Below are positions 1,553-15,471 of a stretch of 40,880 nt of DNA, piece after piece. The translations under genes were made by a program, and so were the position numbers. The notes beneath the pieces were generated by a model. The model was not told the DNA's origin and did not search any database. It saw nothing but the letters and a program-made list of their open reading frames with translations. Origin of the DNA: a virus (Duplodnaviria > Heunggongvirae > Uroviricota > Caudoviricetes); the IMG/VR virus record IMGVR_UViG_2563366819_000005, one strand, 5' to 3'. Numbering within the stretch: the stretch's first letter is position 1; the number at the start of each line of letters is the position of its first letter.

Positions 1553-1741
1553 TCACGAGGACTGAAGTTTCTCGCAATTAAAATTTATCAGTTTTACTTT
1601 CTGCTCTCTGGAAACGCCTGCTTCTTTTTTACCTGAGAGCATTTTTTCGCATTCTGATTTCGTTAGTTTAGATTTTGAATATCTTGTCCAGTTAGTAGGA
1701 GTGCCACCTTCCTTTTCAATAGTAGCGGTAATTTTATACAT
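1553..1741 (-). CDS. ydaC: YdaC-like small phage protein (start chosen at MYKITATIEKEGG)
   Basis: ORF in the Rac position between xis and lar. Start is uncertain: the longest ORF begins at 1813 and would overlap lar. Confidence 0.5.
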   Translation of the reverse strand: MYKITATIEKEGGTPTNWTRYSKSKLTKSECEKMLSGKKEAGVSREQKVKLINFNCEKLQSS

Positions 1742-11778: not shown

Positions 11779-11803
11779 CTACTAGGGGGGATAACAATAA
11801 AAT

Positions 11804-11823
11804 AAAGCCTCCTAGGAGGCTTT
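11804..11823. terminator. 20-bp perfect palindrome AAAGCCTCCTAGGAGGCTTT; candidate bidirectional terminator between convergent genes
   Basis: Perfect inverted repeat flanked by A/T-rich sequence. Contains the stop codon of the methyltransferase gene. Confidence 0.4.
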
Positions 11824-12852
11824 GATTATATTAAGCAAATGTTTTCCAATCGTTTCAGACATCTTCGGAGGGACCGCATTTCCTATTTGACGAGCCCGAG
11901 ATTGCAAAGAACCAATAAATTTATAATCCAAAGGAAATGTTTGTAGACACGCTGCTTCACGAACCGATATTGCTCGATTTTGTGTTGGATGTCCAAAACG
12001 TCCATTTGAATAGCTAATACAACGAGTTGTTAGTCCGCTGGCTGGTTTGTCCCAACTCAAACGTCCATATACGTCTGTATGCCCTTTATGGTTACGATGG
12101 CATTCTAAAATCAATTCATCTGGCCAAAATTCTCGACTTCCACCTTCAGGAGTGCATTTTATTCTACGTAAATTAAGCTCTGATAAGCGTGCAGCTTCAT
12201 GATCAGGAATACTATTATGCTTTTCTCCTGCTTCTATCTTCGGTAAATTAGCGATCCAGTCCTTTACTGTTGAATAGGGAGTATTTCCAACCCCATGTGT
12301 AGGAGAAGGCAATGCGACATAAAAATCCTTGGATGCAATGAGCACTAATCTTTCTCGCGTCTGTGGTACACCGTACCACGCAGCTGGCATTACTTTATAA
12401 TCTACACTATATCCCTTTGATGAAAGCATTTCTAAAAACATCATGAATGTTCCTTCATTTTTGTTAAACTTTTGCATTCCTGGCACGTTTTCAACAAAAA
12501 TAAAATCAGGCATATAATGCTCTACAAAGCGACTGAATTCCTTTAATAGATCTAATCGTGGATCATCATTTTTCTTATTTGAGTTTTGCTTAGAGTACGG
12601 TTGACAAGGCGCACATCCTGAAAAAAGAATGTAATCATTACGATGTTTTTTTACTAACTTGTTTATGGCATTGTTGTCGATTAACCTAATGTCCGAGTTA
12701 ATAAAAGCAGCCTGCGGGAAATTTGCACGAAATGAACTGGCTGCATCAACGTCGAAATCGAGGCCAAAAACAATATCCATTCCAGCTTGATGGAAACCTT
12801 GGCTGGTTCCACCACAACCGGAAAAGAAGTCAAACACTTTGATTTTTTTCAT
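11812..12852 (-). CDS. DNA (cytosine-5)-methyltransferase (346 aa from ATG at 12852)
   Basis: C5-MTase motifs in order: FDFFSGCGG (motif I), GCAPCQPYS (motif IV PCQ, catalytic Cys), FVENVPGM (motif VI ENV), QTRERLVLIA (motif VIII), GNAVPP (motif X). GAGGG SD before the ATG. Confidence 0.85.
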   Translation of the reverse strand: MKKIKVFDFFSGCGGTSQGFHQAGMDIVFGLDFDVDAASSFRANFPQAAFINSDIRLIDNNAINKLVKKHRNDYILFSGCAPCQPYSKQNSNKKNDDPRLDLLKEFSRFVEHYMPDFIFVENVPGMQKFNKNEGTFMMFLEMLSSKGYSVDYKVMPAAWYGVPQTRERLVLIASKDFYVALPSPTHGVGNTPYSTVKDWIANLPKIEAGEKHNSIPDHEAARLSELNLRRIKCTPEGGSREFWPDELILECHRNHKGHTDVYGRLSWDKPASGLTTRCISYSNGRFGHPTQNRAISVREAACLQTFPLDYKFIGSLQSRARQIGNAVPPKMSETIGKHLLNIIKAS

Positions 12853-12875
12853 TTTTCCCTCTGCATCCAGAATCA

Positions 12876-14705
12876 CTACCTAATGATACCACGGTCAAGA
12901 GCCTGAGTAATTATTTTTCTTATTTTTATAAATTCAGGCAATTCATTTTTAAGTCTTGCGGTCATCATTTGTTGGAGGCAAAAAATTTCCTCTGCATTTA
13001 CTTCTTCTTTATCATACAGGTGTTGCGCTAATAATCTTATTTGATTCTTATACAGTTCTGGATCATTAGAACTCCAGGTCTGTGAATCAATTATTTCTTT
13101 TTCACTTGGCGTAATTGCCTTTTCAATGAGTAATTGTTCGGGAGTATCAAATGGTAAATACTGCACTTTATTGAATGCATACTCAAGCACTTGCCTTTTG
13201 AGTCTATTAGATTCTTGTTCATTTTTTTTGCCATTACTACCACTGGCATTGATAATTAACTCGCAACCATAATATTTGCACATTGTATTAACTAAATCAG
13301 CATCAGCAATTTCACTAATTCTTACTGGTTTTATTTTTTTGTTTTTATCACCATCAAGTAAAAACAAAATATCATTGCGTTCTACCACAGCGTAACTGGG
13401 AAGATGCTTGCTTAAAATGGTCTCCGAACCACCTGGTATATAACTTACACTAAATGATAAGCTTAATCTTTCATCATTTTTAATCGCTTTATCTATAATT
13501 GCTTTAGCTAATTTATCTTCTACAATTATTGTTTTCTTGTTAATATCATGCCCTAGCTCTATAAAAGCTTCATCCGGTGCTATATTTTGAACTATTTTAG
13601 CTGTTTCACTCTCTTCATCAAAAACAAATAATTTAATGGCATCTTTGGGAAGAGTGTTCACAATAACAGGAGAATGGGTTGATATTACCACTTGATGTTT
13701 TTTCTGCTCAACAATAGAGTACAGAACATCCATCATCCTTTTTTGTGCACCAGGGTGAAGTGAAACTTCTGGTTCGTCAAGAAGAATTAATGAATTAGGT
13801 TTGGCCGAATAAATATTGAGTATTAGTGAAACTATTGCAAATTCACCACTTCCAGCAAACGCTTCTGTATAGTTCAACTTATCAGTTGAAAGTAAAGCGG
13901 TTCCTCCTCTGGTTCCAAATAACCGATGCTCAAGAAATTTAATGACTTTATATTTTTTCCCTAATATAAATGAGACGTGCTCAACTAGTTCTGGCGCCAA
14001 GGTTATATTTTTAACAATGGTTTCCGCCCCCCAGAGTCTTAAATTACTTAGCTTTTCATCAAAAGCTTTCTTTATATATTTAGATTTGCTTCTGATATAG
14101 TCTTGCTTTGTAATTAATACACCACTCTTCTTCTTTCTTAATTTAAAATCAGAGTGATACATACATCTATCAAATGCACTTATTTCCGATCTGAAATCTA
14201 GGAAAACCAATCCCTTCTTGATTTTTTTCCATCTGGTTGCATTACTATTAGCACCCAGATCATCCGAAATACTCTCCATGTTATCACCAACAGATGGTCG
14301 ACTTGTTTCCCAATAATCGATTGTTTTCTTGGTAGCATTGATACGTGCTTGGAGTATTTCAACTAAACGGCCATCAGCATTTTTATATCCATATATATAT
14401 CTAGGTTTAAGAGAACTGCCATCAGCAAGTTTTAGGTCAGGAAACTCATCTGTTTCAGTTGTGAACCAATAACGAGTTATATTTTTACCATGTGGGCAAC
14501 CAAATAGCGCTTTGATAACAGAACTTTTATTAGTTCCATTTTTTCCTACTAAAGCCGTTATAGGGAACTGAAAATCGATCCTTGCATTCTGCTCTATATT
14601 TTTAAAGTATGGAAAACGGATATGTTGTATGAATGGTTCAAATTCACCGTTTTTTAACGCGCACTGGAGTGTTCGAATTTTGCTCTTGTATGCGGAAGTG
14701 CTCAT
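12876..14705 (-). CDS. OLD-family-like protein: N-terminal ABC-type ATPase plus putative C-terminal TOPRIM nuclease domain (609 aa)
   Basis: P-loop ALVGKNGTNKSS (GxNGxxKS type as in RecF/OLD), Walker B SLILLDEPEVSLHP, H-loop ISTHSP. C-terminal IIVEDKLAKAII followed about 55 aa later by LFLLDGDKN, resembling the TOPRIM Glu and DxD motifs. Visibly AT-rich. Confidence 0.65.
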   Translation of the reverse strand: MSTSAYKSKIRTLQCALKNGEFEPFIQHIRFPYFKNIEQNARIDFQFPITALVGKNGTNKSSVIKALFGCPHGKNITRYWFTTETDEFPDLKLADGSSLKPRYIYGYKNADGRLVEILQARINATKKTIDYWETSRPSVGDNMESISDDLGANSNATRWKKIKKGLVFLDFRSEISAFDRCMYHSDFKLRKKKSGVLITKQDYIRSKSKYIKKAFDEKLSNLRLWGAETIVKNITLAPELVEHVSFILGKKYKVIKFLEHRLFGTRGGTALLSTDKLNYTEAFAGSGEFAIVSLILNIYSAKPNSLILLDEPEVSLHPGAQKRMMDVLYSIVEQKKHQVVISTHSPVIVNTLPKDAIKLFVFDEESETAKIVQNIAPDEAFIELGHDINKKTIIVEDKLAKAIIDKAIKNDERLSLSFSVSYIPGGSETILSKHLPSYAVVERNDILFLLDGDKNKKIKPVRISEIADADLVNTMCKYYGCELIINASGSNGKKNEQESNRLKRQVLEYAFNKVQYLPFDTPEQLLIEKAITPSEKEIIDSQTWSSNDPELYKNQIRLLAQHLYDKEEVNAEEIFCLQQMMTARLKNELPEFIKIRKIITQALDRGIIR

Positions 14706-14853
14706 TGTTTACTAAAGTCCATAATAGGCTATTAACAGGTTGAGGATGACATGATAACGATTTTTAATGCAGATAAAAGAGGTTTGTTGGTTAGCACACA
14801 ACAGAAAAAGTGACCTTACCGCTTGAACGAAAGGTAAGGGTAAGTAGGCTGTG

Positions 14854-15006
14854 ATGCAGCAAAAGACGATGTTAATCGCCCTGATTGTCATCTGTATTAC
14901 CGTCGTTGTGATGGCACTGGTAACAAGGAAAGACTTCTGCGAGGTACAAATCCGAACCGGTCAGACGGAGGTCGCTGTCTTCACAGCTTACGAACCTGAG
15001 GAGTGA
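14854..15006 (+). CDS. Hok/Gef-family type I toxin (HokD/RelF-like, 50 aa)
   Basis: Hand-translated MQQKTMLIALIVICITVVVMALVTRKDFCEVQIRTGQTEVAVFTAYEPEE, closely resembling HokD/RelF as I recall it. Single transmembrane helix plus conserved C-terminus. Confidence 0.75.
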   Translation: MQQKTMLIALIVICITVVVMALVTRKDFCEVQIRTGQTEVAVFTAYEPEE

Positions 15007-15013
15007 GAGACCA

Positions 15014-15035
15014 GGCGAGGGAGAAATCCCTCGCC
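15014..15035 (+). other. Stem-loop GGCGAGGGA-GAAA-TCCCTCGCC just 3' of the hok-like ORF (hok mRNA 3' structure)
   Basis: Perfect 9-bp stem with a GNRA tetraloop 8 nt after the stop codon. No U-tract follows. Confidence 0.4.
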
Positions 15036-15471
15036 ACCTCTGATGAGTCAGGCATCCTCAACGCACCCGCACTTAACCAACTTTGGCGGGTATATTTTAT
15101 CTGTGAATATTTTTATAAAAATAATGCCCACGCACAGCATAAAACAAAAAGTATTATAGATAAAAAAGGAACGTAATGTGCAGATTTGTTGTTTTCCATA
15201 TTTACTCACCTTAATATGATTAACCCTAATAGGGTTGTTATTTCAGCGGTTTTCAAATGAGATATTATGGTGATCTGGCAGATTTGCATAACATTAAAAT
15301 TTAATTTGTTTAACCGCTTTTAATAATAAGCGTTGTTTGTATCCCAGCAATCTGTTGTTTGGTTTTTATTCCATTAAGGTGGGGCTTTACACTGGAGCCA
15401 GTTTATTTATACTTCATACGTCAGCCTGAACAACTGGCATCTGCTGCGCTGCGCCATCGAGAGATTAAGAA

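Follow-up and report, generated by a model that had tools for sequence, protein, structure and literature searches.

The hok gene of the window (the whole analysed stretch of DNA, 40,880 nt) probably represents a type I toxin locus of the hokD/hokW type that was truncated at its 5' end and is carried as a silent passenger. Compared with a normal hok transcript unit, the locus lacks the first ~150 nt, comprising the hok promoter, tac, the entire Sok gene, and the start of mok. On the analysis presented here, the orphan hok is probably translationally silent.

Prophage context and the hok gene

The window is a Rac-like lambdoid prophage of Escherichia coli, identical or near-identical in strain ATCC 8739 and other strains. 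The genes are arranged in the order ydaT, ydaV, DUF1627, DUF977, methyltransferase and ATPase (both on the opposite strand), hok, DUF1367, DUF1364, a Q-like gene, and lysis genes. The toxin gene and the adjoining cassette are located as follows.

11812-14705, minus strand: low-GC two-gene cassette with a C5 DNA methyltransferase and a 609-aa AAA_21/AAA_15 ATPase
GTG 14851 or ATG 14854 to TGA 15004-15006, plus strand: hok ORF of the HokD/HokW type, 51 or 50 aa

GTG 14851 stands at the canonical start position, and ATG 14854 lies one codon further 3'. The Hok translation reads LIALIVICITVVVMALV ... KDFCEV ... TAYEPEE, and the full peptide is (M)MQQKTMLIALIVICITVVVMALVTRKDFCEVQIRTGQTEVAVFTAYEPEE. 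It matches the Pfam family HOK_GEF (PF01848) over residues 6-46 with 76.8 bits (E 9.4e-22; cut-off 22) and has 44 of 51 residues (86%) identical to HokD of K-12, which confirms the 50-aa HokD/RelF-like ORF of the original prediction. The same ORF is labelled 'Hok/Gef family protein' in RefSeq. The hallmarks of Hok/Gef peptides are present, with an N-terminal hydrophobic helix, a Cys after the helix, and TAC-Tyr at the second Cys position near the C-terminus. Compared with K-12 HokD, Cys30, the TM segment, and the Tyr codon TAC are all kept. The TAC codon is followed by G, the same as in K-12 hokD, and an editing claim has been published for the TAC-Tyr codon of hokD-type genes (bioRxiv 10.1101/2025.08.07.668861). 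Over 4500 E. coli genomes have hokD/hokW loci with 90-94% DNA identity to the ORF and 3' untranslated region (UTR), which places the hok locus far above chance.

No signs of decay were seen in the ORF, and hok is intact in every copy found. Its pN/pS of 0.5-0.7 equals that among canonical loci and is uninformative as a test of decay. The window hok allele was found only adjoining the cassette. The exact Hok protein is present in 973 blocks of a public assembly collection, and this wide occurrence of an intact ORF speaks against silence.

The following elements were recognized in the 3' UTR.

15014-15022 / 15027-15035, plus strand: conserved hok mRNA 3' stem-loop of 9 bp (fold)
15050-15069, plus strand: fbi (fold-back inhibition) element, identical in 933W, Rac442, and K-12
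15065-15100, plus strand: weakened terminator-like hairpin (6-bp stem, 15-nt loop) with U-rich tail (fold)

The strong stem-loop that had been predicted downstream of the ORF was confirmed, as the 3' UTR at 15005-15100 has a fold z of -3.46 and 0/200 shuffles fold as well. One pair of the stem covaries, being A-U in the window, G-C in Rac442, and G.U in K-12. In the R1 system, the 3' stem-loop marks and protects the processed 3' end (PMC9841398). The fbi element is conserved in the window, but its canonical partner tac is gone. Similarity of the window to other hokD loci stops at ~15091.

Canonical hok/mok/sok loci of phages

In the record of phage 933W, SokW RNA is annotated at L001:1405-1475, and mokW begins 57 nt before hokW in the same frame. 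The Rac prophage of strain 442/2 carries both mok and hok. A common leader of ~190 nt, ~90% conserved whatever lies upstream, was found in 933W, Rac442, TOE3, and isolate 362. On these four loci the Rfam model RF01794 ('sok'), which has 157 positions and extends from tac to the hok start, scored 99-116 bits (113 for 933W). The canonical tac-fbi pairing has an energy of -32.4 kcal/mol, reached by 0-1 of 500 shuffles.

Seventy-nine hokD-type loci on phage contigs were usable for comparison. The canonical leader is present in 71 of them, the window-type leader in three, and the relE junction of K-12 in two; two of the remaining three have other disruptions, and one is too near a contig end to classify. 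Locus L046 has a transposase gene within mok, L038 is rearranged, and in a further genome, KY202, the ATG of mok is changed to ATA. About 10% of phage-borne hokD loci are thus in some way without a canonical leader. Judged by sequence comparison, a complete hok/mok/sok locus of the kind found in 933W, Rac442, TOE3, and isolate 362 is ancestral.

Leader region

The ATPase gene (12876-14705, minus strand; annotated as 'ATP-dependent nuclease') has its start codon at 14705-14703 and is divergent from hok. The distance of 148 bp that had been given for the two start codons is exact, with 148 nt (14706-14853) up to the hok ATG. The following parts were distinguished in this interval.

14706-14814, no strand assigned: AT-rich DNA non-homologous to hok leaders (alignment, Rfam, GC)
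14815-14850, plus strand: decayed remnant of the canonical leader, with the mok 3' end, Sok promoter region, and hok Shine-Dalgarno (alignments, shuffles)
14814-14820 / 14833-14839, plus strand: hairpin within the remnant (fold)
TGA 14824-14826 and TAG 14845-14847, plus strand: two stops in the canonical mok frame (sequence; mokW frame of 933W)

The hok promoter, tac, the Sok gene, and the start of mok would be expected in the place of the AT-rich DNA at 14706-14814. Homology to 933W, Rac442, TOE3, isolate 362, and K-12 begins at ~14815-14842, with none left of ~14815, and BLAST matches, found in 103 phage records and in over 4500 E. coli genomes, all begin at 14825-14842 and end at ~15091. 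In local alignment to the canonical leader, only 14810-14853 is significant (0/1000 shuffles), and 14706-14809 is at the chance level (628/1000 shuffles). Global colinear alignments of the window with canonical leaders are at or below the shuffle mean (z -0.8 to 0). The sok model RF01794 has no match in 14500-15400 at E<=10, in accordance with the lack of a recognisable sok context noted originally. When the whole window was searched with Rfam at the gathering score, sok was absent and only RalA and STnc100 were found. According to folding, 14706-14814 is unstructured on both strands, and no Sok-like hairpin or terminator was found on the minus strand of the leader (z +0.13). The best partner of fbi has -20.9 kcal/mol in RNAduplex, matched by 140/2000 shuffles, compared with -32.4 kcal/mol for the canonical pairing.

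In a consensus promoter scan of both strands no site passed; since the same scan misses the genuine promoters of 933W, it is weak evidence by itself and leaves the absence of a promoter unproven. A PWM scan of both strands yielded candidates that are ordinary for the window. On the minus strand of the leader, no site stands out as a Sok-like antisense promoter, the hexamer equivalents TTACCT and TCACTT being degenerate. The gene had been proposed to be silent, a relic, or driven by a new promoter; a silent relic is best supported, and no convincing new promoter was seen on either strand.

The remnant of ~36 nt has ~65% identity to the canonical leader versus 90-94% for the ORF and 3' UTR. Its Sok promoter hexamers read TTACCT-18-TCACTT with a 1-nt deletion, where Rac442 has TTGACC-18-TAATCT; in 933W, 7 nt separate the Sok -10 hexamer from the 5' end annotated for SokW. 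The mok frame was defined by the 933W annotation, with mokW in frame with hokW, and by alignment. In this frame of the window, no start codon was found between or after the two stops, and in other frames no ORF starts upstream and overlaps hok, so the absence of an overlapping mok-like frame stands as described. The description of the toxin gene as having no mok/sok context holds in that no functional mok or sok is recognisable, but a decayed remnant of mok and the sok promoter persists at 14815-14850. Closer alignment did not reveal a canonical mok ORF or sok promoter, the leader left of ~14815 remaining at chance.

Start region of hok

Five substitutions (14840 A>G, 14841 G>T, 14845 C>T, 14851 A>G, and 14855 A>T) set the 21-nt start region of the window apart from the canonical sequence, which otherwise hardly varies. 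The canonical Shine-Dalgarno AAGGAG is changed to AAGGGT (GGAG to GGGT), and the canonical ATG to GTG, a new ATG following in the next codon. The substitution at 14855, the fifth, occurs also in an unrelated lineage. The start region can pair with the end of the coding sequence.

14839-14854, plus strand: 5' arm of a helix over the hok ribosome-binding region and start codon (inverted repeat)
14981-14996, plus strand: 3' arm of the helix at the end of the hok coding sequence, including the TAC Tyr codon (inverted repeat)

Four of the five substitutions (14840, 14841, 14845, and 14851) create new Watson-Crick pairs with 14981-14996. The helix has 11 contiguous pairs, from -10 to +1 relative to ATG 14854, and three more further out. 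Its duplex energy is -23.3 kcal/mol in the window versus -12.9 kcal/mol in the canonical sequence, a value reached by 0.08% of random sets of five substitutions with the partner fixed and by 13/4000 with any downstream partner. Both arms are almost invariant among canonical loci. The helix is part of the predicted MFE fold of 14800-15036 with P = 0.99, and in a longer hypothetical transcript its predicted P is 0.21. Predicted accessibility of the start region was rejected as a discriminator, as its value is no lower than in canonical transcripts.

Cassette and origin of the junction

The G+C content is 0.28-0.43 from ~11800 to ~14820, 0.49-0.55 over hok, and low again from ~15090 to ~15400. 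With 0.37 in 14706-14814 and a composition break at ~14820, the leader matches the methyltransferase and ATPase cassette in composition. Of 5426 complete E. coli genomes, 32 carry the window leader, each time adjacent to the ATPase of the cassette. This ATPase at >=99% identity and the altered hok start region were likewise each found in 32 genomes. At all 10 listed places of the exact Hok protein, the order is DUF977, methyltransferase, ATPase, and hok, and the downstream lysis modules differ. In several natural recombinants, crossovers at 14866, 14876, and 14885 join the window-type leader and start region to hok bodies and 3' UTRs of the canonical type. The co-occurrence of leader, ATPase, and start region indicates a single historical event, and the junction, as read from these sequences, is one event spread by recombining prophages.

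Homologues of the cassette with 63-74% identity are present at other phage hot spots without hok, namely, the Q/holin interval in E. coli C4, beside terminase genes, beside an integrase, and in Pantoea. A search of genome contigs for the ATPase gave one distant locus only, in Pantoea. The regions upstream of the cassette homologues with 63-74% identity (L015, L016, L024, and L035) have no similarity to the leader. The link between the leader and the cassette is one of base composition and strict co-occurrence only.

As to the claim that the partner genes upstream had been replaced by the cassette, an imported cassette does adjoin hok, but relB and relE are not the ancestral partners. The K-12 order relB-relE-hokD was confirmed as relB-relE-hokD-rem.

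Proposed course of truncation

The canonical leader is lost, with AT-rich DNA contiguous with the imported methyltransferase and ATPase cassette in its place. The remaining ~36 nt of leader have decayed in the Sok promoter, mok frame, Shine-Dalgarno, and start codon, and four of the five substitutions in the start region add pairs to the predicted helix with the 3' end of the hok coding sequence. With mok absent, the ribosome-binding site weakened, and the start occluded, Hok is probably not made, as the precedent of R1 suggests, and a toxin gene without antitoxin would therefore be tolerated. In R1, Hok synthesis requires translation of Mok up to the hok Shine-Dalgarno, and AUG-to-GUG at the hok start leaves toxicity (PMC9841398). 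K-12 hokD is tolerated without changes in the start region, so such 'locking' is not needed for tolerance. The locus, linked to the cassette, may persist as a passenger, and recombination with other prophage copies of hok presumably exchanges its coding part repeatedly.

Leader ORFs, complementarity, and alternative explanations

ATG 14751 to TGA 14813 and GTG 14810 to TGA 14854, plus strand: short leader ORFs in a speculative stop/start relay (ORF scan)

The first of these ORFs has 20 codons and the Shine-Dalgarno GAGGA, and its stop overlaps the GTG of a 14-codon ORF. The latter begins at GTG 14810 without a Shine-Dalgarno, and its stop overlaps the hok start. A relay led by a Shine-Dalgarno and ATG appeared in 19/5000 shuffles under a criterion set after the data had been seen, and it is possibly a product of chance. 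Three perfect complements of 10, 9, and 8 nt join the foreign leader to the 3' UTR; shuffling the leader gave at least three such runs in 1/3000 cases, and 0.1-0.3% of the natural 145-nt windows in this sequence have as many. The complement of 10 nt pairs 14739-48 with 15053-62 in fbi, contains the Shine-Dalgarno of the first leader ORF, and closes the MFE fold if the 5' end is set there. It crosses the other two and is the only one retained in the natural recombinants, which have lost two of the three. The 3' arm of one complement is present also in loci with canonical leaders. As a new tac, 14739-48 was not accepted as established, with p ~0.07 against shuffles in RNAduplex (<=0.2% for canonical loci) and a non-significant ensemble test (123/200 and 28/200). 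An inverted duplication flanking hok was considered as the source of the complementarity and found unsupported. The complementarity and the ORF relay could represent residual or new regulation.

That hok is still used without an antitoxin appears rather unlikely. In such a case, there would be no promoter active in the lysogen, the transcript would arise on induction or by read-through, and the leader ORFs would replace mok, with the 20-codon ORF followed by GUGA (14810-13) and UGAUG (14852-56) handing ribosomes on to hok. Hok would then aid lysis, as HokW does in Sp5, or serve as an abortive-infection effector beside the defence cassette. The relay and the enriched complementarity, with a Shine-Dalgarno inside the fbi complement, favour such use, as do the path of rightward early transcription, which includes hok, and the widespread toxin ORF, intact in all copies. 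HokW is made on induction and raises phage release about two-fold (PMC8621323), which points in the same direction. However, all criteria behind the relay and complementarity were defined post hoc, the second ORF has no Shine-Dalgarno of its own, the energy-based fold-back tests are non-significant, and most of the complementarity is lost in recombinants. A bidirectional terminator at 11803-11824 and the ~2.9 kb antisense cassette separate the early genes from hok, the substitutions of the start region weaken its ribosome-binding site, and hok was found unenriched near defence systems in a survey (bioRxiv 10.1101/2025.08.07.668861). A fully rewired, antitoxin-free switch, in which the leader folds onto the 3' UTR, the ORF relay replaces mok, and antisense from the defence operon might exert control, is quite improbable. 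In it, trimming of the 3' tail or read-through on induction would free the leader ORFs to relay ribosomes into hok. If relay and fold-back were functional, the locus would represent antitoxin-free gating of a type I toxin.

It is highly improbable that a transcript of the divergent ATPase operon, or another intergenic transcript, acts as a new antisense antitoxin and ties the release of Hok to shut-off of the defence operon. The divergent arrangement at 148 bp would allow it, and the best promoter-like sites of the minus strand are TTTATC-15-TATCAT (start ~14744) and TTGTGT-17-TTTTAT (start ~14766), whose transcripts could overlap a hok transcript from ~14739. Yet these sites have scores ordinary for the window (ranks 380 and 2078 of ~408,000 candidates), the overlap is hypothetical as a hok promoter is not evident, and no structure was predicted for the antisense strand of the leader. 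L032 and EC11 have broken cassette genes but an unchanged hok, which argues against dependence of hok on intact cassette proteins and leaves dependence on a cassette transcript unaffected. A complete hok/sok locus with mok and sok too diverged for recognition is barely conceivable. GTTGAGG (tac-like), GCAGATA, and GAGG followed by TTG can be picked out by eye in the canonical order, but such hidden homology was rejected, as both local and global alignments are at chance against shuffles. Against it stand also the missing Rfam match, with controls at 99-116 bits, the minus strand without terminator or hairpin, and the lack of an upstream ORF overlapping hok. Outside the leader, the locus shares 90-94% identity with canonical loci, and an unrecognisable leader cannot be a product of simple descent.

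Comparison with known systems

Ordinary truncation can explain a prophage 'toxin without antitoxin', and such truncations recur. The closest known system is hokD (relF) of the Qin prophage in K-12, which belongs to the same Hok subfamily and has ~91% nt identity in the ORF and 3' UTR. Like the window locus, it keeps the 3' stem-loop and fbi, has no canonical leader, mok, or sok, and precedes the nin/Q region of a lambdoid prophage. K-12 hokD was reportedly described by Pedersen and Gerdes in 1999 as having no upstream regulatory elements. The breakpoint is ~17 nt upstream of the start in K-12 hokD and ~36-40 nt upstream in the window, and the upstream DNA is relBE in the same orientation in the former and the divergent ATPase and methyltransferase cassette in the latter. 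K-12 hokD keeps the AGGAG Shine-Dalgarno and ATG, whereas both are altered in the window and the start region is more strongly paired. Judged by their different breakpoints and upstream DNA, the two truncations are independent, both from a complete hok/sok locus; the window hok is, by this comparison, of the same kind as K-12 hokD and arose independently. It may serve as a calibration point, of a kind for which K-12 hokD is the textbook case, and ordinary for a specialist.

Experiments have established hokW-sokW, the locus of 933W and Sakai prophage 5, as a type I toxin-antitoxin pair (PMC8621323). It is prophage-borne like the window locus, with homologous toxin, 3' UTR, and fbi at ~87% nt identity, but it has the full leader with tac, SokW RNA, and mokW, all of which the window lacks. 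L046, L038, and KY202 resemble the window as natural losses of mok/sok function with an intact hok ORF; their lesions differ from those of the window, and in L046 and KY202 the leader sequence is recognisable.

The hok/mok/sok (parB) system of R1 shares with the window the Hok/Gef peptide and, 3' of the ORF, a stem-loop and a fold-back element (PMC9841398). R1 has Sok, mok, and the tac/ucb switch, which the window does not have. When Sok is absent, a lone chromosomal copy of R1 hok kills the cell (Le Rhun et al., PMC9841398). The suppressors recovered comprised mok start-codon mutations, stop codons in mok before the hok start, changes close to the hok Shine-Dalgarno, changes in the tac stem, and mutations stabilising closed structures (PMC9841398). 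The window resembles these suppressors in the lost mok start, the mok stops, the Shine-Dalgarno changes, and the stabilised closed structures. The natural changes at the hok start thus mirror classes of laboratory suppressors of R1 hok without Sok, and the locus would offer a natural test case for switched-off translation of Hok.

Methyltransferase and ATPase Cassette

A low-GC cassette of two genes, bounded on the left by a terminator, is coded on the prophage genome.

11803-11824, bidirectional terminator at the left cassette edge
11812-14705, minus strand, C5 DNA methyltransferase and 609-aa AAA_21/AAA_15 ATPase

Its top PADLOC matches were HEC-04 (E 1.7e-34) and ATPase-Toprim_I-B. The cassette lies 3' of the replication genes in the window and in the Q-holin interval in E. 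coli C4, and it occupies other positions in two further loci (L015 and L016); it is a candidate restriction-modification-like or OLD-like defence module, mobile among lambdoid hot spots. The ATPase gene is fragmented in two assemblies, GL871807.1 and E. coli EC11, and in the former the methyltransferase gene is likewise split. The hok ORF adjoining the broken cassette is unchanged in GL871807.1, and that of EC11 has a single residue difference. The broken genes could represent genuine decay or else assembly error.

Other RNA Elements and the Downstream Spacer

Two RNA families were identified by Rfam on the prophage, and one promoter-like site was predicted in the spacer downstream of hok.

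1557-1735, plus strand, RalA sRNA antitoxin (RF02694), full-length match, 220.6 bits
17648-17834, plus strand, STnc100, 86.6 bits, 3' of the Q-like gene
15153-15182, minus strand, sigma-70-like site TGCACA-18-TATAAT, the best in the region, 10/12 matches

In Rac, RalA is the antitoxin sRNA that forms a type I toxin-antitoxin pair with RalR; given the full-length match, the prophage carries, besides hok, a second type I system that is apparently complete. STnc100 was also matched by Rfam at the TOE3 locus (L022:6321-6507). For isrK, a weak sub-threshold Rfam match (33.2 bits against a gathering score of 50, E 7e-4) was found in the 3' UTR/terminator of the Rac442 hok (L002:1687-1767), directly upstream of the rem antirepressor gene; no isrK match was found by Rfam in the window, where an AT-rich spacer (15091-15400) stands in place of rem. 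The promoter-like site is located in this spacer and is aimed back at the 3' end of hok. The total count of sigma-70-like sites equals the shuffle prediction, and the spacer that holds the site is common to loci with normal sok.

Disrupted Loci in Other Genomes

In the phage contig L046, a gene for a 362-aa transposase-like protein (L046:41-1129, minus strand) sits inside the mok region of the hokD locus.

L046:43-222, plus strand, Mok-like N-terminus, MLDICRLASYAPKGKE..., stranded about 1.1 kb upstream of hok

Another locus, L038, has yet another, rearranged upstream junction. The hokW-type locus of E. coli JNEC-KY202 (L116:1440-1550) has a still recognisable leader and a hok starting with ATGATG, as in the window; its mok start is changed from ATG to ATA and followed by TAG, and this locus is therefore a natural mok-null variant.

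Possible Leader and Start-Region Pairing

Three perfect complements of 8-10 nt join the foreign leader (14739-14793) and the hok 3' UTR (15053-15103), a number above the chance expectation (about 0.03-0.3%); pairing of leader and 3' UTR was supported neither by energy-based tests nor by natural recombinants. In hokD-type mRNAs, the A of the TAC (Tyr) codon is reportedly a target of A-to-I editing by TadA (bioRxiv 10.1101/2025.08.07.668861). This A corresponds to window position 14990 and is opposite C14845 in the canonical loci, with which inosine would pair. In the window, by contrast, A14990 is opposite a new U14845 and is paired without need of editing.
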